In this document: positions 1-10,845 of the stretch, piece after piece
Numbering within the stretch: position 1 is the stretch's first letter
How the letters are laid out: each line of letters opens with the position of its first letter
Virus genome (UHGV): UHGV-1727423
DNA: 14,148 nt
Reading direction: 5' to 3' (one strand)
Source of the DNA: a virus
Translations under genes and position numbers: made by a program
The notes under the pieces: model-generated
Database searches by the model: none
What the model was told of the DNA's origin: nothing
What the model saw: the letters and a program-made list of their open reading frames with translations, nothing else

Positions 1-392
1 CATCCCGTCAGGCGAGCCAGATGTTTCTGTGCTGGCTGGAAGAGGCCATCGTTCGCCGCGTGGTGACGTTACCTTCAAAAGCGCGCTTCAGCTTTCAGGA
101 AGCCCGCAGTGCCTGGGGGAACTGCGACTGGATAGGCTCCGGTCGTATGGCCATCGATGGTCTGAAAGAAGTTCAGGAAGCGGTGATGCTGATAGAAGCC
201 GGACTGAGCACCTACGAGAAAGAGTGCGCGAAACGCGGTGACGACTATCAGGAAATTTTTGCCCAGCAGGTCCGTGAAACGATGGAGCGCCGTGCAGCCG
301 GTCTTAAACCGCCCGCCTGGGCGGCTGCGGCATTTGAATCCGGACTGCGACAATCAACAGAGGAGGAGAAGAGTGACAGCAGCGCTGCGTAA
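1..392 (+). CDS. B: Portal protein, C-terminal fragment (5' end lies outside the window)
   Basis: Open frame from the window edge to TAA at 390-392. Sits immediately upstream of, and overlaps by 20 nt, the C protease start, as in lambda B/C. Assigned by synteny only. Confidence 0.7.
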   Translation, partial: SRQASQMFLCWLEEAIVRRVVTLPSKARFSFQEARSAWGNCDWIGSGRMAIDGLKEVQEAVMLIEAGLSTYEKECAKRGDDYQEIFAQQVRETMERRAAGLKPPAWAAAAFESGLRQSTEEEKSDSSAA

Positions 393-1721
393 TCTCCCGC
401 ATATTGCCAGCATGGCTTTTAATGAGCCGCTGATGCTTGAACCCGCCTATGCGCGGGTTTTCTTTTGTGCGCTTGCAGGCCAGCTTGGGATCAGCCGCCT
501 GACGGATGCAGTATCCGGCGACAGCCTGACTGCCGGAGAGGCACCCGCGGCGCTGGCGTTATCCGGTGATGATGACGGACCACGACAGGCCCGCAGTTAT
601 CAGGTCATGAACGGCATCGCCGTGCTGCCGGTGTCCGGTACGCTGGTCAGCCGGACGCGGGCGCTGCAGCCGTATTCGGGAATGACCGGTTACAACGGCA
701 TTATCGCCCGTCTGCAACAGGCTGCCAGCGATCCGATGGTGGACGGCATTCTGCTGGATATGGACACACCGGGCGGGATGGTGGCGGGAGCATTTGACTG
801 TGCTGACATCATCGCCCGTGTGCGAGACATAAAACCGGTATGGGCGCTGGCCAACGACATGAACTGCAGTGCAGGTCAGCTGCTTGCCAGCGCCGCCTCC
901 CGGCGTCTGGTCACGCAGACCGCCCGGACAGGCTCCATCGGCGTCATGATGGCTCACAGTAATTACGGTGCTGCGCTGGAGAAACAGGGCGTGGAAATCA
1001 CGCTGATTTACAGCGGCAGCCATAAGGTGGATGGCAACCCCTACAGCCATCTACCGGATGATGTCCGGGAAACACTGCAGTCCCGGATGGATGCAACCCG
1101 CCGGATGTTTGCACAGAAGGTGTCGGCATATACCGGCCTGTCCGTGCAGGCTGTGCTGGATACCGAGGCTGCAGTGTACAGCGGTCAGGAGGCCATTGAT
1201 GCCGGACTGGCTGATGAACTTGTGAACAGTACCGATGCGATCACCGTCATGCGTGATGCACTGGATGCACGTAAATCCCGTCTCTCAGGAGGGCGAATGA
1301 CCAAAGAGACTCAATCAACAACTGAGTCTCTTTGGAGACTCAATCAACAACTGTTTCAGCCACTGCTTCGCAGGCTGACGTTACTGGCGTGGTGCAAGCG
1401 ACGGAGGGCGAGAACGCCAGCGCTGCGCAGCCGGACGTGAACGCGCAGATCACCGCAGCGGTTGCGGCAGAAAACAGTCGCATTATGGGGATCCTCAACT
1501 GTGAGGAGGCTCACGGACGCGAAGAACAGGCATGCGTGCTGGCCGAAACCCCCGGTATGACCGTGGAAACGGCCCGCCGTATTCTGGCCGCAGCACCACA
1601 GAGTGCACAGGCGCGCAGTGACACTGCGCTGGATCGTCTGATGCAGGGGGCACCGGCACCGCTGGCTGCAGGTAACCCGGCATCTGATGCCGTTAACGAT
1701 TTGCTGAACACACCAGTGTAA
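373..1721 (+). pseudogene. C: Capsid assembly protease C (S49/ClpP-like) with nested scaffold Nu3 frame; frameshifted by a 29-bp insertion
   Basis: GTG start at 373 preceded by AGGAGG (361-366). Translation reads MTAALRNLPHIASMAFNEPLMLEPAYARVFF..., matching lambda gpC as recalled. Frame is intact to ~1324, then shifts and stops at 1438-1440. The original frame resumes (ORF 1332-1721, ...TQSTTVSATASQADV...NDLLNTPV) and ends at TAA 1719-1721. Span 373-1721 is 1349 bp, i.e. 1320 bp (lambda C length) plus 29. Nu3 internal start would be ATG 1087 (MDATR...). Confidence 0.8.
1302..1353 (+). repeat. Quasi-palindromic duplication: 19-bp direct repeat (1306-1324 and 1335-1353) separated by 10 bp (1325-1334) that is the reverse complement of 1302-1311
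   Basis: Read directly: CAAAGAGACTCAATCAACAACTG / AGTCTCTTTG / GAGACTCAATCAACAACTG. The 10-bp spacer AGTCTCTTTG is the exact reverse complement of CAAAGAGACT at 1302-1311. Confidence 0.9.
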
Positions 1722-1730
1722 GGGATGTTT

Positions 1731-2063
1731 ATGACGAGCAAAGAAACCTTTACCCATTACCAGCCGCTGGGCAACAGTGACCCGGCTCATACCGCAACCG
1801 CGCCCGGCGGATTGAGTGCGAAAGCGCCTGCAATGACCCCGCTGATGCTGGACACCTCCACCCGTAAGCTGGTTGCGTGGGATGGCACCACCGACGGTGC
1901 TGCCGTTGGCATTCTTGCAGTTGCTGCTGACCAGACCAGCACCACACTGACGTTCTACAAGTCCGGCACGTTCCGTTATGAGGATGTGCTCTGGCCGGAG
2001 GCTGCCAGCGACGAGACGAAAAAACGGACCGCGTTTGCCGGAACGGCAATCAGCATCGTTTAA
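1731..2063 (+). CDS. D: Head decoration protein
   Basis: ATG at 1731 (second ATG of ORF 1725-2063) after AGGGA. 110 aa, [12 protein letters not shown]...GTAISIV, same length and near-identical to lambda gpD as recalled. Confidence 0.92.
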
Positions 2064-2080
2064 CTTTACCCTTCATCACT

Positions 2081-2105
2081 AAAGGCCGCCTGTGCGGCTT
2101 TTTTT
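2081..2105 (+). terminator. Intrinsic-terminator-like hairpin between D and E (GCCGC-CTGT-GCGGC followed by T7)
   Basis: Stem 2085-2089 pairs with 2094-2098, 4-nt loop, then seven T at 2099-2105, with an A-run upstream. Lies in the 55-bp D-E gap. Confidence 0.4.
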
Positions 2106-2118
2106 ACGGGATTTTTTT

Positions 2119-3144
2119 ATGTCGATGTACACAACCGCCCAGCTGCTGGCGGCAAATGAGCAGAAATTTAAGTTTGATCCGTTGTTTCTGCGTCTCTTTT
2201 TCCGTGAGAGCTATCCCTTCACTACGGAGAAAGTCTATCTCTCACAAATTCCGGGACTGGTAAACATGGCGCTGTACGTTTCGCCGATTGTTTCCGGTGA
2301 GGTTATCCGTTCCCGTGGCGGCTCCACCTCTGAATTTACGCCGGGATATGTCAAACCCAAGCATGAAGTGAATCCGCAGATGACCCTGCGTCGCCTGCCG
2401 GATGAAGATCCGCAGAATCTGGCGGACCCGGCTTACCGCCGCCGTCGCATCATCATGCAGAACATGCGTGACGAAGAGCTGGCCATTGCTCAGGTCGAAG
2501 AGATGCAGGCAGTTTCTGCCGTGCTCAAGGGCAAATACACCATGACCGGTGAAGCCTTCGATCCGGTTGAGGTGGATATGGGCCGCAGTGCGGCGAACAA
2601 CATCACGCAGTCCGGCGGCACGGAGTGGAGCAAGCGTGACAAGTCCACGTATGACCCGACCGACGATATCGAAGCCTACGCGCTGAACGCCAGCGGCGTG
2701 GTGAATATCATCGTGTTTGACCCGAAAGGCTGGGCGCTGTTCCGTTCCTTCAAAGCCGTCAGGGAGAAGCTGGATACCCGTCGCGGCTCTCATTCCGAAC
2801 TGGAGACAGCGGTAAGAGAACTGGGAAAAGCGGTGTCTTATAAGGGAATGTATGGCGATGTGGCCATCGTCGTGTATTCCGGACAGTACGTGGAAAACGG
2901 CGTCAAAAAGAACTTCCTGCCGGACAACACGATGGTGCTGGGTAACACTCATGCACGCGGTCTGCGCACCTATGGCTGTATTCAGGATGCGGATGCATTG
3001 AGTGAGGGTATTAATGCGTCTCCCCGTTATCCGAAAAACTGGAAGACATCCGGCGATCCGGCGCGAGAGTTCACCATGATTCAGTCAGCACCGCTGATGC
3101 TGCTGGCTGATCCTGATGAGTTCGTGTCCGTTCAACTGGCGTAA
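2119..3144 (+). CDS. E: Major capsid protein
   Basis: ATG at 2119 (internal to ORF 2092-3144). 341 aa, MSMYTTAQLLAANEQKFKFDPLFLRLFF...EFVSVQLA, same length as lambda gpE (HK97-fold major capsid). Confidence 0.93.
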   Translation: MSMYTTAQLLAANEQKFKFDPLFLRLFFRESYPFTTEKVYLSQIPGLVNMALYVSPIVSGEVIRSRGGSTSEFTPGYVKPKHEVNPQMTLRRLPDEDPQNLADPAYRRRRIIMQNMRDEELAIAQVEEMQAVSAVLKGKYTMTGEAFDPVEVDMGRSAANNITQSGGTEWSKRDKSTYDPTDDIEAYALNASGVVNIIVFDPKGWALFRSFKAVREKLDTRRGSHSELETAVRELGKAVSYKGMYGDVAIVVYSGQYVENGVKKNFLPDNTMVLGNTHARGLRTYGCIQDADALSEGINASPRYPKNWKTSGDPAREFTMIQSAPLMLLADPDEFVSVQLA

Positions 3145-3146
3145 TC

Positions 3147-3173
3147 ATGGCCCTTCGGGGCCATTTTCTCTCT
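3147..3173 (+). promoter_or_regulatory. Stable stem-loop with UUCG tetraloop between E and FI
   Basis: ATGGCCC (3147-3153), TTCG loop, GGGCCAT (3158-3164), followed by TTTCTCTCT. Ends 12 nt before the FI Shine-Dalgarno GGAGGA (3175-3180). Confidence 0.4.
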
Positions 3174-3185
3174 GTGGAGGAGTCC

Positions 3186-3581
3186 ATGACGAAAGATGAA
3201 CTGATTGCCCGTCTCCGGTCGCTGGGTGAGCAACTGAACCGTGATGTCAGCCTGACGGGGACGAAAGAAGAACTGGTGCTCCGTGTGGCAGAGCTGGAAG
3301 AGGAGCTTGATGACACGGATGACGGAGCCGGTCAGGACTCGTCTGTCAGCCCGGAAAATGCGCTGACCGGACATGAAAATGAGGTGGTATCAGCACAGAC
3401 GGATACCGTGACTGATACGGCTGCTCTGGTCACGGTTGTGGCACTGGTGACGCTGCATACCGATGCACTTCACGCCACGCGGGATGAACCTGTGGCATTT
3501 GTGCTGCCGGGAACGGCGTTTCGTGTCTCTGCCGGTGTGGCAGCCGAAATGACAGAGCGCGGCCTGGCCAGAATGCAATAA
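3186..3581 (+). CDS. FI: DNA-packaging / head assembly accessory protein FI
   Basis: ATG at 3186 after GGAGGA. MTKDELIARLRSLGEQLNRDVSLTGTKEEL...ERGLARMQ, 131 aa. Lambda position between E and FII. Confidence 0.85.
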   Translation: MTKDELIARLRSLGEQLNRDVSLTGTKEELVLRVAELEEELDDTDDGAGQDSSVSPENALTGHENEVVSAQTDTVTDTAALVTVVALVTLHTDALHATRDEPVAFVLPGTAFRVSAGVAAEMTERGLARMQ

Positions 3582-3592
3582 CGGGAGGCGCT

Positions 3593-3946
3593 GTGGCTGA
3601 TTTCGATAACCTGTTCGATGCTGCCATTGTCCGCGCCGATGAAACGATACGCGGGTACATGGGAACGTCAGCCACCATGACATCCGGTGAGCAGTCCGGC
3701 GCAGTAATACGTGGTGTTTTTGATGACCCTGAAAATATCAGCTATGCCGGACAGGGCGTGCGCGTTGAAGGCTCCAGCCCGTCCCTGTTTGTCCGGACTG
3801 ATGATGTGCGGCAGCTGCGGCGTGGAGACACGCTGACCATCGGTGAGGAAAACTTCTGGATAGACCGGGTTTCGCCGGATGATGGTGGAAGCTGTCATCT
3901 CTGGCTTGGGCGGGGCGTACCGCCTGCCGTTAACCGTCGCCGCTGA
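3593..3946 (+). CDS. FII: Head-tail joining (head completion) protein FII
   Basis: GTG start at 3593 after GGGAGG. 117 aa, MADFDNLFDAAIVRADETIRGYMG...PAVNRRR, same length as lambda gpFII. Confidence 0.85.
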   Translation: MADFDNLFDAAIVRADETIRGYMGTSATMTSGEQSGAVIRGVFDDPENISYAGQGVRVEGSSPSLFVRTDDVRQLRRGDTLTIGEENFWIDRVSPDDGGSCHLWLGRGVPPAVNRRR

Positions 3947-3957
3947 AAGGGGGATGT

Positions 3958-4536
3958 ATGGCCATAAAAGGTCTTGAGCAGGCCATTGAAAACCTCAGCC
4001 GTATCAGCAAAACGGCGGTGCCTGGTGCCGCCGCAATGGCCATTAACCGCGTTGCTTCATCCGCGATATCGCAGTCGGCGTCACAGGTTGCCCGTGAGAC
4101 AAAGGTACGCCGGAAACTGGTAAAGGAAAGGGCCTGGCTGAAAAGGGCCACGGTCAAAAATCCGCAGGCCAGAATCAAAGTTAACCGGGGGGATTTGCCC
4201 GTAATCAAGCTGGGTAATGCGCGGGTTGTCCTTTCGCGCCGCAGGCGTCGTAAAAAGGGGCAGCGTTCATCCCTGAAAGGTGGCGGCAGCGTGCTTGTGG
4301 TGGGTAACCGTCGTATTCCCGGCGCGTTTATTCAGCAACTGAAAAATGGCCGGTGGCATGTCATGCAGCGTGTGGCCGGGAAAAACCGTTACCCCATTGA
4401 TGTGGTGAAAATCCCGATGGCGGTGCCGCTGACCACGGCGTTTAAACAAAATATTGAGCGGATACGGCGTGAACGTCTTCCGAAAGAGCTGGGCTATGCG
4501 CTGCAGCGTCAACTGAGGATGGTAATAAAGCGATGA
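3958..4536 (+). CDS. Z: Tail completion protein Z
   Basis: ATG at 3958 after GGGGGA. 192 aa, MAIKGLEQAIENLSRISKTAVPGAAAMAINRV.... Stop overlaps the U start (ATGA). Confidence 0.87.
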   Translation: MAIKGLEQAIENLSRISKTAVPGAAAMAINRVASSAISQSASQVARETKVRRKLVKERAWLKRATVKNPQARIKVNRGDLPVIKLGNARVVLSRRRRRKKGQRSSLKGGGSVLVVGNRRIPGAFIQQLKNGRWHVMQRVAGKNRYPIDVVKIPMAVPLTTAFKQNIERIRRERLPKELGYALQRQLRMVIKR

Positions 4537-4928
4537 AACATACTGAACTCCGTGCAGCCGTACTGGATGCACTGGAGAAGCATGACACCGGGGCGACGTT
4601 TTTTGATGGTCGCCCCGCTGTTTTTGATGAGGCGGATTTTCCGGCAGTTGCCGTTTATCTCACCGGCGCTGAATACACGGGCGAAGAGCTGGACAGCGAT
4701 ACCTGGCAGGCGGAGCTGCATATCGAAGTTTTCCTGCCTGCTCAGGTGCCGGATTCAGAGCTGGATGCGTGGATGGAGTCCCGGATTTATCCGGTGATGA
4801 GCGATATCCCGGCACTGTCAGATTTGATCACCAGTATGGTGGCCAGCGGCTATGACTACCGGCGCGACGATGATGCGGGCCTGTGGAGTTCAGCCGATCT
4901 GACTTATGTCATTACCTATGAAATGTGA
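4533..4928 (+). CDS. U: Tail terminator (tail tube capping) protein U
   Basis: 131 aa, [33 protein letters not shown]...[13 protein letters not shown] overlap with Z. Confidence 0.88.
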
Positions 4929-4935
4929 GGACGCT

Positions 4936-5676
4936 ATGCCTGTACCAAATCCTACAATGCCGGTGAAAGGTGCCGGGACCACCCTGTGGGTTTATAAGGG
5001 GAGCGGTGACCCTTATGCGAATCCGCTTTCAGACGTTGACTGGTCGCGTCTGGCAAAAGTTAAAGACCTGACGCCCGGCGAACTGACCGCTGAGTCCTAT
5101 GACGACAGCTATCTCGATGATGAAGATGCAGACTGGACTGCGACCGGGCAGGGGCAGAAATCTGCCGGAGATACCAGCTTCACGCTGGCGTGGATGCCCG
5201 GAGAGCAGGGGCAGCAGGCGCTGCTGGCGTGGTTTAATGAAGGCGATACCCGTGCCTATAAAATCCGCTTCCCGAACGGCACGGTCGATGTGTTCTGTGG
5301 CTGGGTCAGCAGTATCGGTAAGGCGGTGACGGCGAAGGAAGTGATCACCCGCACGGTGAAAGTCACCAATGTGGGACGTCCGTCGATGGCAGAAGATCGC
5401 AGCACGGTAACAGCGGCCACCGGCATGACGGTAACGCCAGCCAGTGCTTCCGTAGTGAAAGGGCAGAGCACCACGCTGACCGTGGCCTTCCAGCCGGAGG
5501 GCGTAACCGACAAGAGCTTTCGTGCGGTGTCTGTGGATAAAACAAAAGCCACCGTGTCGGTCAGTGGTATGACCATCACCGTGAACGGCGTTGCTGCAGG
5601 CAAGGTCAACATTCCGGTTGTATCCGGTAATGGTGAGTTTGCTGCGGTTGCAGAAATTACCGTCACCGCCAGTTAA
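4936..5676 (+). CDS. V: Major tail tube protein V, with C-terminal Ig-like domain
   Basis: ATG at 4936 (internal to ORF 4906-5676) after GTGAGGA. 246 aa, [31 protein letters not shown].... The C-terminal ~90 aa are T/V/S-rich, as in the lambda gpV Ig-like domain. Confidence 0.9.
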
Positions 5677-5691
5677 TCCGGAGAGTCAGAG

Positions 5692-6114
5692 GTGTTCCTG
5701 AAAACCGAATCATTTGAACATAACGGTGTGTCCGTCACGCTTTCTGAACTGTCAGCCCTGCAGCGCATTGAGCATCTCGCCCTGATGAAACGGCAGGCAG
5801 AACAGGCGGAGTCAGACAGCAACCGGAAGTTTACTGTGGAAGACGCCATCAGAACCGGCGCGTTTCTGGTGGCGATGTCCCTGTGGCATAACCATCCGCA
5901 GAAGACGCAGATGCCGTCCATGAACGAAGCCGTTAAACAGATTGAGCAGGAAGTGCTTACCACCTGGCCCACGGAGGCAATTTCTCATGCTGAAAACGTG
6001 GTGTACCGGCTGTCTGGTATGTATGAGTTTGTGGTGAATAATGCCCCTGAACAGACAGAGGACGCCGGGCCCGCAGAGCCTGTTTCTGCGGGAAAGTGTT
6101 CGACGGTGAGCTGA
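5692..6114 (+). CDS. G: Tail assembly chaperone G
   Basis: GTG at 5692. 140 aa, MFLKTESFEHNGVSVTLSELSALQRIEHLALMKRQAEQ...AGKCSTVS. Stop TGA at 6112-6114. Confidence 0.88.
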   Translation: MFLKTESFEHNGVSVTLSELSALQRIEHLALMKRQAEQAESDSNRKFTVEDAIRTGAFLVAMSLWHNHPQKTQMPSMNEAVKQIEQEVLTTWPTEAISHAENVVYRLSGMYEFVVNNAPEQTEDAGPAEPVSAGKCSTVS

Positions 6115-6530
6115 GTTTTGCCCTGAAACTGGCGCGTGAGATGGGGCGACCCGACTGGCGTGCCATGCTTGCCGGGATGTCATCCACGGAGTATGCCGAC
6201 TGGCACCGCTTTTACAGTACCCATTATTTTCATGATGTTCTGCTGGATATGCACTTTTCCGGGCTGACGTACACCGTGCTCAGCCTGTTTTTCAGCGATC
6301 CGGATATGCATCCGCTGGATTTCAGTCTGCTGAACCGGCGCGAGGCTGACGAAGAGCCTGAAGATGATGTGCTGATGCAGAAAGCGGCAGGGCTTGCCGG
6401 AGGTGTCCGCTTTGGCCCGGACGGGAATGAAGTTATCCCCGCTTCCCCGGATGTGGCGGACATGACGGAGGATGACGTAATGCTGATGACAGTATCAGAA
6501 GGGATCGCAGGAGGAGTCCGGTATGGCTGA
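5692..6530 (+). CDS. GT: Tail assembly chaperone G-T fusion, made by programmed -1 ribosomal frameshift at 6090-6096
   Basis: The -1 frame ORF (6096-6530, ...FDGELSFALKLAREMGRPDW...) has no start or Shine-Dalgarno of its own. It begins at the slippery heptamer G GGA AAG seven codons before the G stop, the classic lambda G/GT arrangement. T segment is 435 nt, as in lambda. Confidence 0.75.
6090..6096 (+). other. Slippery heptamer GGGAAAG (-1 programmed frameshift signal for G-T)
   Basis: GGA and AAG are zero-frame G codons at 6091-6096. After slippage to GGG AAA the -1 frame continues GTG TTC GAC... into the T frame. Confidence 0.75.
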
Positions 6531-9072
6531 ACCGGTAGGCGATCTGGTCGTTGATTTAAGTCTGGATGCGGCCAGATTTGACGAGCAGATGGCCAGAGTC
6601 AGGCGTCATTTTTCCGGTACGGAAAGTGATGCGAAAAAAACATCGGCAGTCGTTGAACAGTCGCTGAGCCGACAGGCGCTGGCTGCACAGAAAGCGGGGA
6701 TTTCCGTCGGGCAGTATAAAGCCGCCATGCGTATGCTGCCTGCACAGTTCACCGACGTGGCCACGCAGCTTGCAGGCGGGCAAAGTCCGTGGCTGATCCT
6801 GCTGCAACAGGGGGGGCAGGTGAAGGACTCCTTCGGCGGGATGATCCCCATGTTCAGGGGGCTTGCCGGTGCGATCACCCTGCCGATGGTGGGGGCCACC
6901 TCGCTGGCGGTGGCGACCGGTGCGCTGGCGTATGCCTGGTATCAGGGCAACTCAACCCTGTCCGATTTCAACAAAACGCTGGTCCTTTCCGGCAATCAGG
7001 CGGGACTGACGGCAGATCGTATGCTGGTCCTGTCCAGAGCCGGGCAGGCGGCAGGGCTGACGTTTAACCAGACCAGCGAGTCACTCAGCGCACTGGTTAA
7101 GGCTGGGGTAAGCGGTGAGGCTCAGATTGCATCCATCAGCCAGAGTGTGGCGCGTTTCTCCTCTGCATCCGGGGTGGAGGTGGACAAGGTCGCTGAAGCC
7201 TTCGGGAAGCTGACCACAGACCCGACGTCAGGGCTGACAGCGATGGCACGCCAGTTCCATAACGTGACGGCGGAGCAGATTGCGTATGTTGCTCAGTTGC
7301 AGCGTTCCGGCGATGAAGCCGGGGCATTGCAGGCGGCGAACGAGGCCGCGACGAAAGGGTTTGATGACCAGACCCGCCGCCTGAAAGAGAACATGGGTAC
7401 GCTGGAGACCTGGGCAGACAGGACAGCGCGGGCATTCAAATCCATGTGGGATGCGGTGCTGGATATTGGTCGTCCTGATACCGCGCAGGAGATGCTGATT
7501 AAGGCAGAGGCTGCGTTTAAGAAAGCGGACGACATCTGGAGTCTGCGCAAGGATGATTATTTTGTTAACGATGAAGCGCGGGCGCGTTACTGGGATGATC
7601 GTGAAAAGGCCCGTCTTGCGCTTGAAGCCGCCAGAAAGAAGGCTGAACAGCAGACTCAACAGGACAAAAATGCGCAGCAGCAGAGCGATACCGAAGCGTC
7701 ACGGCTGAAATATACCGAAGAGGCGCAGAAGGCTTACGAACGCCTGCAGACGCCGCTAGAGAAATATACCGCCCGTCAGGAAGAACTGAACAAGGCACTG
7801 AAAGACGGGAAAATCCTGCAGGCGGATTACAACACGCTGATGGCGGCGGCGAAAAAGGATTATGAAGCGACGCTGAAAAAGCCGAAACAGTCCGGCGTGA
7901 AGGTGTCTGCGGGCGATCGTCAGGAGGACAGTGCTCATGCTGCCCTGCTGACGCTTCAGGCAGAACTCCGGACGCTGGAGAAGCATGCCGGAGCGAATGA
8001 GAAAATCAGCCAGCAGCGCCGGGATTTGTGGAAGGCAGAAAGTCAGTTCGCGGTACTGGAGGAGACGGCACAACGTCGCCAGCTGTCCGCACAGGAGAAA
8101 TCCCTGCTGGCGCATAAAGATGAGACGCTGGAGTACAAACGCCAGCTGGCTGCACTTGGCGACAAGGTTACGTATCAGGAGCGCCTGAACGCGCTGGCGC
8201 AGCAGGCGGATAAATTCGCACAGCAGCAACGGGCAAAACGGGCCGCCATTGATGCAAAAAACCGGGGGCTGACTGACCGGCAGGCAGCGCGGGAAGCCAC
8301 GGAACAGCGCCTGAAGGAACAGTATGGCGATAATCCTCTGGCGCTGAATAACGTCATGTCAGAGCAGAAAAAGACCTGGGCGGCTGAAGACCAGCTTCGC
8401 GGGAGCTGGATGGCAGGCCTGAAGTCCGGCTGGAGTGAGTGGGAAGAGAGCGCCACGGACAGTATGTCGCAGGTAAAAAGTGCAGCCACGCAGACCTTTG
8501 ATGGTATTGCACAGAATATGGCGGCGATGCTGACCGGCAGTGAGCAGAACTGGCGCAGCTTCACCCGTTCCGTGCTGTCCATGATGACAGAAATTCTGCT
8601 TAAGCAGGCAATGGTGGGGATTGTCGGGAGTATCGGCAGCGCCATTGGCGGCGGCGCATCAGCGTCAGGCGGTACAGCCATTCAGGCAGCTGCGGCGAAA
8701 TTCCATTTTGCGGCCGGAGGGTTTACGGGAACCGGCGGCAAATATGAGCCAGCGGGGATTGTTCACCGTGGTGAATTTGTCTTCACGAAGGAGGCAACCA
8801 GCCGGATTGGCGTAGGAAATCTTTACCGGCTGATGCGCGGCTATGCCACCGGCGGTTATGTCGGTACACCGGGCAGCATGGCGGACAGCCGGTCGCAGGC
8901 GTCCGGGACGCTTGAGCAGAATAACCATGTGGTGATTAACAACGACGGCACGAACGGTCAGATAGGGCCACAGGCACTGAAGGCGGTTTATGACGTAGCC
9001 CGTAAGGCGGCAATGGATGTTGTGACCGGGCAGATGCGCGATGGTGGTCTGTTCTCCGGAGGTGGACGATGA
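6523..9072 (+). CDS. H: Tail tape measure protein H
   Basis: ATG at 6523 after AGGAGG, overlapping the T stop (ATGGCTGA). 849 aa, MAEPVGDLVVDLSLDAARFDEQMARVRRHF.... Long coiled-coil-like central region and a Gly-rich C-terminal part. Stop overlaps the M start (ATGA). Confidence 0.93.
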   Translation: MAEPVGDLVVDLSLDAARFDEQMARVRRHFSGTESDAKKTSAVVEQSLSRQALAAQKAGISVGQYKAAMRMLPAQFTDVATQLAGGQSPWLILLQQGGQVKDSFGGMIPMFRGLAGAITLPMVGATSLAVATGALAYAWYQGNSTLSDFNKTLVLSGNQAGLTADRMLVLSRAGQAAGLTFNQTSESLSALVKAGVSGEAQIASISQSVARFSSASGVEVDKVAEAFGKLTTDPTSGLTAMARQFHNVTAEQIAYVAQLQRSGDEAGALQAANEAATKGFDDQTRRLKENMGTLETWADRTARAFKSMWDAVLDIGRPDTAQEMLIKAEAAFKKADDIWSLRKDDYFVNDEARARYWDDREKARLALEAARKKAEQQTQQDKNAQQQSDTEASRLKYTEEAQKAYERLQTPLEKYTARQEELNKALKDGKILQADYNTLMAAAKKDYEATLKKPKQSGVKVSAGDRQEDSAHAALLTLQAELRTLEKHAGANEKISQQRRDLWKAESQFAVLEETAQRRQLSAQEKSLLAHKDETLEYKRQLAALGDKVTYQERLNALAQQADKFAQQQRAKRAAIDAKNRGLTDRQAAREATEQRLKEQYGDNPLALNNVMSEQKKTWAAEDQLRGSWMAGLKSGWSEWEESATDSMSQVKSAATQTFDGIAQNMAAMLTGSEQNWRSFTRSVLSMMTEILLKQAMVGIVGSIGSAIGGGASASGGTAIQAAAAKFHFAAGGFTGTGGKYEPAGIVHRGEFVFTKEATSRIGVGNLYRLMRGYATGGYVGTPGSMADSRSQASGTLEQNNHVVINNDGTNGQIGPQALKAVYDVARKAAMDVVTGQMRDGGLFSGGGR

Positions 9073-9398
9073 AAACCTTCCGCTGGAAAGTGAAACCCGG
9101 TATGGATGTGGCTTCGGCCCCTTCCGTAAGAAAGGTGCGCTTTGGTGATGGCTATTCCCAGCGAGCGCCTGCCGGGCTGAATGCCGACCTGAAAACGTAC
9201 AGCGTGACGCTTTCTGTTCCCCGTTGGGAGGCCACGGCGCTTGAGTCGTTTCTGGCTGAGCACGGGGGCTGGAAATCCTTTCTGTGGACGCCGCCTTATG
9301 AGTGGCGGCAGATAAAGGTGACCTGCGCAAAATGGTCGTCGCGGGTCAGTATGCTGCGTGTTGAGTTCAGCGCAGAGTTTGAACAGGTGGTGAACTGA
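9069..9398 (+). CDS. M: Tail tip assembly protein M
   Basis: 109 aa, MKTFRWKVKPGMDVASAPSVRKVRFGDGYSQRAP.... Same length and position as lambda gpM. Confidence 0.88.
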   Translation: MKTFRWKVKPGMDVASAPSVRKVRFGDGYSQRAPAGLNADLKTYSVTLSVPRWEATALESFLAEHGGWKSFLWTPPYEWRQIKVTCAKWSSRVSMLRVEFSAEFEQVVN

Positions 9399-10096
9399 TG
9401 CAGGATATCCGGCAGGAAACACTGAATGAATGCACTCGTGCGGAGCAGTCGGCCAGCGTGGTGCTCTGGGAAATCGATCTGACAGAGGTCGGTGGAGAAC
9501 GTTATTTTTTCTGTAATGAGCAGAACGAAAAAGGTGAGCCGGTCACCTGGCAGGGGCGACAGTATCAGCCGTATCCCATTCAGGGGAGTGGTTTTGAACT
9601 GAATGGCAAAGGCACCAGTACGCGCCCCACGCTGACGGTTTCTAACCTGTACGGTATGGTCACCGGGATGGCGGAAGATCTGCAGAGTCTGGTCGGCGGA
9701 ACGGTGGTCCGGCGTAAGGTTTACGCCCGTTTTCTGGATGCGGTGAACTTCGTCAACGGAAACAGCGATGCCGATCCGGAGCAGGAGGTGATCAGCCGCT
9801 GGCGCATCGAGCAGTGCAGCGAACTGAGCGCGGTCAGTGCCTCTTTTGTACTGTCCACGCCGACGGAAACGGACGGCGCTGTTTTTCCGGGACGAATCAT
9901 GCTGGCCAACACCTGCACCTGGACCTATCGCGGCGATGAGTGCGGTTATAGCGGTCCGGCTGTCGCGGATGAATATGACCAGCCAACGTCCGATATCACG
10001 AAGGATAAATGCAGCAAATGCCTGAGCGGTTGTAAGTTCCGCAATAATGTCGGCAACTTTGGCAGCTTCCTTTCCATTAACAAACTTTCGCAGTAA
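9398..10096 (+). CDS. L: Tail tip protein L, with C-terminal Cys cluster
   Basis: 232 aa, MQDIRQETLNECTRAEQSASVVLWEIDLTEVGGERYFF.... TGATG overlap with M. C-terminal Cys cluster (C-x7-C, CSKCLSGC) consistent with the reported iron-sulfur site of gpL. Confidence 0.88.
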   Translation: MQDIRQETLNECTRAEQSASVVLWEIDLTEVGGERYFFCNEQNEKGEPVTWQGRQYQPYPIQGSGFELNGKGTSTRPTLTVSNLYGMVTGMAEDLQSLVGGTVVRRKVYARFLDAVNFVNGNSDADPEQEVISRWRIEQCSELSAVSASFVLSTPTETDGAVFPGRIMLANTCTWTYRGDECGYSGPAVADEYDQPTSDITKDKCSKCLSGCKFRNNVGNFGSFLSINKLSQ

Positions 10097-10101
10097 ATCC
10101 C

Positions 10102-10845
10102 ATGACAGAGACAGAATCAGCGATTCTGGCGCACGCCCGGCGATGTGCGGCAGCGGAGTCGTGCGGCTTCGTGGTGAGAACGCCGGAGGAGGAAAGATAT
10201 TTTCCCTGCGTGAATATCTCCGGTGAGCCGGAGGCGTATTTCCGGATGTCGCCGGAGGACTGGCTGAGTGCAGAAATGCAGGGAGAGATTGTGGCGCTGG
10301 TCCACAGCCACCCCGGTGGTCTGCCCTGGCTGAGTGAGGCCGACCGGCGGCTGCAGGTGCAGAGTGATTTGCCGTGGTGGCTGGTCTGCCGGGGGGCGAT
10401 TCACAAGTTCCGCTGTGTGCCGCATCTCACCGGGCGGCGCTTTGAGCACGGGGTGACGGACTGTTACACGCTGTTACGGGATGCTTATCATCTGGCGGGG
10501 ATTGAGATGCCGGATTTTCATCGCGAGGATGACTGGTGGTGTCACGGTCAGAATCTCTATCTGGATAATCTGGAGGCCACAGGGCTGTATCAGGTGCCGT
10601 TGTCAGCGGCGCAGCCGGGCGATGTGCTGCTGTGCTGTTTTGGTTCATCGGTGCCGAATCATGCCGCTATTTACTGCGGCGACGGCGAGCTGCTGCACCA
10701 TATTCCTGAACAACTGAGCAAACGAGAGAGGTATACCGACAAATGGCAGCGACGCACACACTCCCTCTGGCGTTACCGGGCATGGCACGCATCTGCCTTT
10801 ACGGGGATTTACAACGATTTGGCCGCCGCATCGACCTTCGTGTGA
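10102..10845 (+). CDS. K: Tail tip assembly protein K (JAMM/MPN metalloprotease-like N-domain plus NlpC/P60-like C-domain)
   Basis: ATG at 10102, 5 nt after the L stop. 247 aa. JAMM motif HSHPGGLPWLSEAD (HxHx7Sx2D) and an NlpC/P60-type Cys (VTDCYTLL) and His (NHAAIY). The 3' end overlaps I by 103 nt in another frame. Confidence 0.85.
   Translation: MTETESAILAHARRCAAAESCGFVVRTPEEERYFPCVNISGEPEAYFRMSPEDWLSAEMQGEIVALVHSHPGGLPWLSEADRRLQVQSDLPWWLVCRGAIHKFRCVPHLTGRRFEHGVTDCYTLLRDAYHLAGIEMPDFHREDDWWCHGQNLYLDNLEATGLYQVPLSAAQPGDVLLCCFGSSVPNHAAIYCGDGELLHHIPEQLSKRERYTDKWQRRTHSLWRYRAWHASAFTGIYNDLAAASTFV

Follow-up and report, generated by a model that had tools for sequence, protein, structure and literature searches.

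A 29-bp insertion built from inverted and direct copies of flanking sequence in the C/Nu3 gene of a lambda-like Escherichia coli prophage

The head gene C of the lambda-like DNA studied here, together with the scaffold frame Nu3 that is nested in it, is broken by 29 bp composed of an inverted and a direct copy of the adjoining sequence. How did these 29 bp arise, do they exist in the DNA of a prophage lineage or in an assembly only, and are the two proteins still made? We compared the locus with phage lambda, with E. coli prophages and with metagenome scaffolds to answer these questions in turn.

The C/Nu3 locus in its gene block

The window, by which we mean the whole stretch of 14,148 bases that was analysed, is collinear with phage lambda 4045-18176 at ~97% identity, and many E. 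coli prophages are likewise collinear with it. Its best match among complete genomes is E. coli strain S10, at 98.2%. The window covers a lambda-type morphogenesis block with the gene order B (3′ end), C/Nu3, D, E, FI, FII, Z, U, V, G, T, H, M, L, K, I and J (5′ part). The C locus sits between the portal gene B, whose 3′ end it overlaps, and the decoration gene D, as it does in lambda and in annotated prophages. The equivalent of the lambda C start at 4418 is window position 373, and that of the lambda nu3 start at 5132 is the ATG at window 1087 (NC_001416). Lambda C (4418-5737) and nu3 (5132-5737) resemble the window locus closely, since they share its place between B and D, a GTG start overlapping the end of B, a nested in-frame Nu3 start, ~97% DNA identity and, after removal of the 29 bp, the length of 439 aa. 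Unlike in lambda, the frames of the window are broken after C residue 317 and Nu3 residue 79. The features of the locus are as follows.

373..1721, plus strand: whole C locus (S49 head maturation protease with the nested Nu3 scaffold frame), a pseudogene through the 29-bp insertion; homologous to lambda C 4418-5737
373..1440, plus strand: truncated C frame, 317 native residues and 38 out-of-frame residues, ending at TGA 1438-1440
1087..1440, plus strand: truncated Nu3 scaffold frame, 79 native residues and the same out-of-frame tail as C; ATG 1087 is in frame with GTG 373
1301..1313, plus strand: source arm of the inverted repeat, CCAAAGAGACTCA, ancestral sequence present in all relatives
1306..1324, plus strand: first copy of the 19-mer GAGACTCAATCAACAACTG
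1325..1334, plus strand: inverted copy AGTCTCTTTG, reverse complement of 1302-1311; the arm is 1323-1335 when shared flanking bases are counted
1335..1353, plus strand: second copy of the 19-mer, which with 1325-1334 makes up the 29-bp gain (placement at 1306-1334 is equivalent); missing in lambda, in E. coli S10 and in the intact prophage L006
1389..1721, plus strand: orphaned C-terminal part of C/Nu3 in the native frame; the gene caller gives a 110-aa ORF from GTG 1389, and the longest ORF runs from TTG 1332 (129 aa)

Peptidase_S49 (Pfam PF01343) is found at C residues 150-297 with E=4e-44, in the restored and the truncated protein alike. The family is defined by an unbroken C frame of ~439 aa whose C-terminal 201 aa are common to Nu3; in the window the frame stops at 1440 after 355 aa. 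No Rfam family reached its gathering score anywhere in the window, and a scan for promoters and terminators gave nothing relevant close to the insertion site. Between D and E, at 2082-2108, there is a G+C-rich hairpin with a T run behind it (GGCCGCCTGTGCGGCTTTTTTT), which the terminator scan does not list.

Several other features of the block deserve a record. Compared with lambda and E. coli S10, gene H (tape measure, 6523-9072) has a 12-bp in-frame deletion (GGGGCTGTTGGT) at 8649/8650, so that its product has 849 aa where theirs has 853 aa. The shortened form is a common allele and occurs in 295 blocks of a contig collection. A shorter tape measure predicts a slightly shorter tail. In gene E, two C->A changes stand 6 nt apart at window 2820 and 2826 and are found in the window only, with C in L006, L004, lambda and the two metagenome scaffolds L010 and L011 described below. 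The change at 2820 replaces Asp by Glu at major capsid residue 234, the change at 2826 is synonymous, and L010 carries an additional change at 2816. The open frame of gene K (10102-10845) encodes 247 aa from ATG 10102, and its relatives are called with JAB and NlpC/P60 domains; a lambda-type record annotates K as 199 aa only, from a start equivalent to 10246. A GGGAAAG slippery heptamer is present at 6090-6096 in the overlap of G (5692-6114) and T (6096-6530). We take it to be the -1 frameshift site of lambda G-T, and the tail chaperone frameshift appears intact.

Repeat structure and origin of the insertion

Pairwise alignments placed a 29-bp gap at the insertion site in lambda, in a lambda hybrid and in E. 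coli S10, and the insertion was the only frame-breaking difference between the window and lambda 4045-18176. Without the 29 bp, the C frame of the window runs unbroken for 439 aa from GTG 373 to TAA 1719-1721. Over its 1,320 nt it then shows 0 differences from C of the intact prophage L006 (E. coli assembly GCA_000460075.1), and window 1-9864 differs from that prophage by 5 mismatches. A 76-nt query across the site collapsed to 47 nt in every one of the ~3,200 complete E. coli genomes with a homolog, and the same collapse was found in 80 of 80 phage records and 43 of 43 plasmid records with a homolog. Judged from these outgroups, all of which lack the 29 bp and so fix the ancestral state, the 29 bp is a derived insertion. 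A preliminary description of this DNA had claimed a 29-bp gain whose removal restores a C frame of lambda length. Both parts stand in the alignments to lambda and related prophages, where the gain lies in the window, and no lambda-family reference with the same arrangement turned up among the 80 phage records and ~3,200 E. coli genomes. Among the records that match the C gene, NZ_CP082339.1 is named a 'Salmonella enterica plasmid' and has 48,502 bp, which is the length of lambda, and records from Stenotrophomonas, Paenibacillus and Campylobacter (one a 'Campylobacter' phage) match it too. Such records probably consist of lambda control DNA that was submitted under the name of a host replicon.

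The 19-mer occurs twice in identical form, and AGTCTCTTTG between the copies is the exact reverse complement of CAAAGAGACT (1302-1311). Both elements had been described before and were re-found in the same places, while the inverted repeat needs correction in its extent: it is a perfect repeat of 13 bp (1301-1313 / 1323-1335, loop of 9 nt) instead of 10 bp. A second hairpin of 8 bp pairs 1323-1330 with 1335-1342. No local direct repeat in the window exceeds 19 nt and no local inverted repeat 13 nt, and both of these lengths are reached at the insertion; the maxima without the 29 bp are 11 and 10. As a chance control we used 20 block shuffles, in which the maxima were at most 12 and 12. The 19-mer and the 13-bp repeat are the sole local repeats in the window above chance.

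We then enumerated the ways in which the derived sequence can be written as an ancestral prefix, the reverse complement of an ancestral segment and an ancestral suffix. One event, with 6 equivalent placements, reproduces the whole difference from the ancestor exactly. Its departure point lies at 1322-1324, its reverse copy extends from 1313-1311 down to 1302/1301, and it resumes at 1306/1307. The first switch has a microhomology of 2 nt (TG/CA), the second one of 1 nt. The most likely origin is one template switch during replication, which is the most economical description of the sequence and not a demonstrated pathway. According to this model, the growing strand would reach ...CAACTG (1322-1324) and leave its template, would then copy 10-13 nt of the complementary or nascent strand backwards from 1313/1311 to 1302/1301, and would finally return to the original template at 1306/1307. 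Because the return point is upstream of the departure point, 19 nt would be copied again, and the strand would end up with a perfect inverted repeat of 13 bp and a direct repeat of 19 bp. The signature of a template-switch or hairpin-primed error, recognized in the preliminary description, is upheld in that one event accounts for the entire insertion.

The ancestral 36-mer has a fold energy of 0 to -0.4 kcal/mol on both strands, which is no better than shuffles, and the derived sequence folds at -13 kcal/mol as DNA. Since the ancestor is without secondary structure, the event is not a classical correction of a pre-existing quasi-palindrome. Hence the earlier label 'quasi-palindromic' is misleading, as the product is a perfect 13-bp hairpin made de novo from an ancestor with no quasi-palindrome. 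The event matches a template-switch model with four switch points, through which perfect hairpin stems are known to arise de novo (PMC8794818). Short-range template-switch mutations of this kind (PMC8794818; for a human study, PMC9435742) share with our locus the reverse-complement copy, the de novo stem and the origin in one event. The difference from those events is that point 4 here lies upstream of point 1, so that 19 nt are duplicated and the result is a 29-bp gain, not a substitution cluster. Quasipalindrome mutagenesis in E. coli (Ripley model; reporters in PMC7202029) belongs to the same class of polymerase strand switches and likewise yields a more perfect palindrome. However, Ripley-type events correct a pre-existing imperfect inverted repeat (PMC7202029), and such a correction is ruled out here, the ancestral 36-mer having no inverted repeat to template it.

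The tiny microhomologies and the hairpin-free ancestor count against the template-switch account, and these same features leave some room for another real origin, either fold-back (snap-back) priming in break or gap repair or an insertion of 10 bp and a duplication of 19 bp as independent events. We consider such an origin unlikely. One event with two switches explains a perfect inverted and a perfect direct copy much more economically than two independent events would, and no intermediate allele, with the 10 bp only or the 19 bp only, was seen among ~3,200 genomes. Fold-back priming by a 3′ end gives a sequence outcome identical to that of an intrastrand template switch, but repair by fold-back is a variant of the same mechanism class, which sequence alone cannot separate. 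Intrastrand fold-back, a switch across the fork and snap-back repair priming would all leave the same sequence and are not separable at this locus. We assign a negligible probability to the footprint of a mobile element, with a target-site duplication and leftover element ends after imprecise excision. Direct repeats around a short core that looks unrelated do recall such a footprint, yet the 10-bp core is the exact reverse complement of adjoining host sequence, straddling the repeat boundary, and a 9-nt loop stands between the core and its source, which is not the case in palindromic additions from hairpin opening. Moreover, target duplications of bacterial insertion sequences usually have 2-14 bp, and the 19-bp duplication is out of this range. 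The preliminary description was right to set a transposon footprint aside, as neither the duplication nor the host-derived inverted core fits it. A single template switch thus stays the most likely origin of the 29 bp.

Occurrence in separate assemblies

A look-up of the exact 355-aa truncated protein retrieved two ENA gut-metagenome scaffolds from different BioSamples, L010 (ERZ28666665, SAMN08366149) and L011 (ERZ28624689, SAMEA2581893), and both contain the identical 42-nt junction. Over 3,551 bp they share 99.9% identity with the window, and 2-3 positions differ; for L011 the sole differences are those at 2820 and 2826. The window extends beyond either scaffold and differs from both, and being longer and distinct it represents at least a third assembly. 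An assembler should be unable to invent junction k-mers, hence the insertion must presumably exist in the reads of these samples. Near-identical flanks and the improbability of recurrence point to identity by descent within one prophage or host lineage, and the insertion has probably been inherited clonally. The two scaffolds also share their start (window 231), and the end of L011 coincides with an N gap of L010 (window 3781). Breakpoints at identical positions suggest that the two samples share a repeat architecture and thus contain one strain. L010 and L011 seemingly come from one assembly series. The scaffold labels WENC17 and QINN14 presumably stand for two Chinese human gut cohorts. One contaminating strain may be common to both metagenomes, and the sequence would be real all the same.

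Whether the 29 bp could instead be an artefact absent from the DNA, such as a library fold-back chimera or a mis-assembly, has to be weighed against this recurrence. The junction is missing from all complete E. coli genomes, from the phage and plasmid records and from the three large contig collections searched; searches with the exact junction patterns (42-mer and 27-mer) gave no match in species-representative genomes, IMG/VR or JGI metagenomes. In addition, the metagenome scaffold L016 has an N gap right beside the site, and other frameshifted C fragments in public assemblies resemble sequencing errors. On the other side, the same junction stands in two scaffolds of different BioSamples and in the longer, slightly differing window. 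De Bruijn assemblers should not create junction k-mers that are missing from the reads, and random chimeras would be expected neither to recur at one site nor to dominate a consensus. We therefore regard an artefact as quite improbable. The assembly error that the preliminary description had kept as an escape has become unlikely, given the identical junction and the 355-aa product in two independent metagenome scaffolds. It is very probable, in our judgement, that the insertion is a real, vertically inherited, templated gain of 29 bp in C/Nu3 of a lambda-like E. coli prophage.

Other irregularities were observed in the same part of C. In L016 (ERZ28641585, SAMD00291515) the gap of 10 N, at ~5325-5335 (window-equivalent 1357-1370), directly follows CAACTGTTT and may reflect allele heterogeneity or coincidence. 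Short frameshifted C fragments occur in several public assemblies, for example with a 1-nt loss at AAAGAGAC or a shift at a TTT run. A search with the junction peptide, which covered cluster representatives only, found the frameshifted C fragments P0001, P0002, P0005 and P0010, none with the insert-specific ESLWRLNQQ; some of these are probably long-read sequencing errors. The protein look-up gave no match for the 129-aa ORF from TTG 1332. Furthermore, L012 (Logan SRR7140553) carries an independent knockout of C, a CAA->TAA change at a Gln codon (L012:8114-8116; window-equivalent 1312-1314), whose stop falls inside the same 19-mer and cuts C to 313 aa.

Effect on C, Nu3 and the prophage

The insertion causes a +2 shift, and the C frame ends at the TGA with 355 aa, the S49 domain being kept. 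Of the 38 non-native residues, 28 lie downstream of the insert. The stop at 1440 had been noted before; the '29 out-of-frame codons' given with it need a small correction, because 28 residues follow the insert and the number 29 counts the stop codon. Nu3 is frameshifted along with C, as had been claimed: it ends after its 79 native residues, and the 122 C-terminal residues common to C and Nu3 are out of frame. In the procapsid initiator of lambda, C is the protease and Nu3 the scaffold, acting with the portal B (PMC3224144). Lambda C and nu3 were each scored essential, with a plating efficiency of <2e-7 on knockdown (PMC10695390). By analogy with lambda, the prophage should make tails and lyse yet form no heads, and would be unable to build procapsids by itself unless complemented. 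Rescue would come only from complementation by, or recombination with, another lambdoid prophage, and this is plausible, as an E. coli genome can contain as many as six copies of the gene.

Rescue within the locus was considered as well. A restart at TTG 1332 had been suggested before, with the remark that it has no Shine-Dalgarno. This is borne out, and none was found before GTG 1389, GTG 1392 or ATG 1485 either; downstream restart was rejected accordingly. Frame 0 has no X XXY YYZ slippery heptamer among its codons between positions 1306 and 1440, and rescue by -1 frameshift was rejected on this ground. Another route would be a ribosome hop of 29 nt between the 19-mer copies. Six matched codon pairs (GAG, ACT, CAA, TCA, ACA, ACT) stand exactly 29 nt apart, so that landing on the second copy restores the native frame and protein, and an 8-bp RNA hairpin (1323-1342, -12.5 kcal/mol) begins at the last matched codon. 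This recalls bypassing in T4 gene 60, where a short non-coding gap likewise lies between matched codons and the take-off site has a hairpin. The likeness is formal only: unlike in gene 60, no stop follows the take-off codon, there is no conservation and the gap is 29 nt versus 50 nt.

Expression of the gene by a hop, a -1 shift or a restart is very improbable. The codon after take-off is an ordinary GAG, neither a stop nor rare, and the allele is private, conserved in no relative among ~3,200 genomes. Nu3 is required in high copy number, and rare events would not rescue an assembly that needs much of it. We likewise give hardly any credence to the ideas that some ribosomes hop the insertion to make native C/Nu3, or that the truncated fragments poison capsid assembly of incoming lambdoid phages; nothing supports either of them. 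If a ribosome hop were true, the allele would be leaky and not null, and the site would be a natural, newly born bypass site.

All other complete genes of the window (D, E, FI, FII, Z, U, V, G, T, H, M, L, K and I) are full length. Together with the 5 mismatches in ~9.8 kb relative to L006, this suggests that the lesion arose recently and is where decay first becomes visible. The window can be compared with the cryptic lambdoid prophages of E. coli, having likewise a morphogenesis gene that a point lesion has knocked out and that is passed on with the host. In classical cryptic prophages deletions and insertions are numerous, whereas the window has its other complete genes intact in a background nearly identical to intact prophages. 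The insertion is a private inactivating prophage mutation of a known mutational kind, and the locus exemplifies two familiar phenomena, mutation by a short-range template switch and the recent pseudogenisation of a morphogenesis gene in a prophage. It raises no new question on phage assembly or mutagenesis.

Our results nevertheless matter to anyone who calls such a prophage 'intact' or attempts its induction, as it would probably not make heads by itself. The locus also offers a clean natural example in E. coli in which one template switch would have turned an unstructured sequence into a 13-bp hairpin and a 19-bp duplication. The prophage would persist as a recently crippled element carried by a bacterial clone, and the 42-nt junction, as a unique lineage marker, could allow a single E. 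coli clone or prophage to be followed from one gut metagenome to another.
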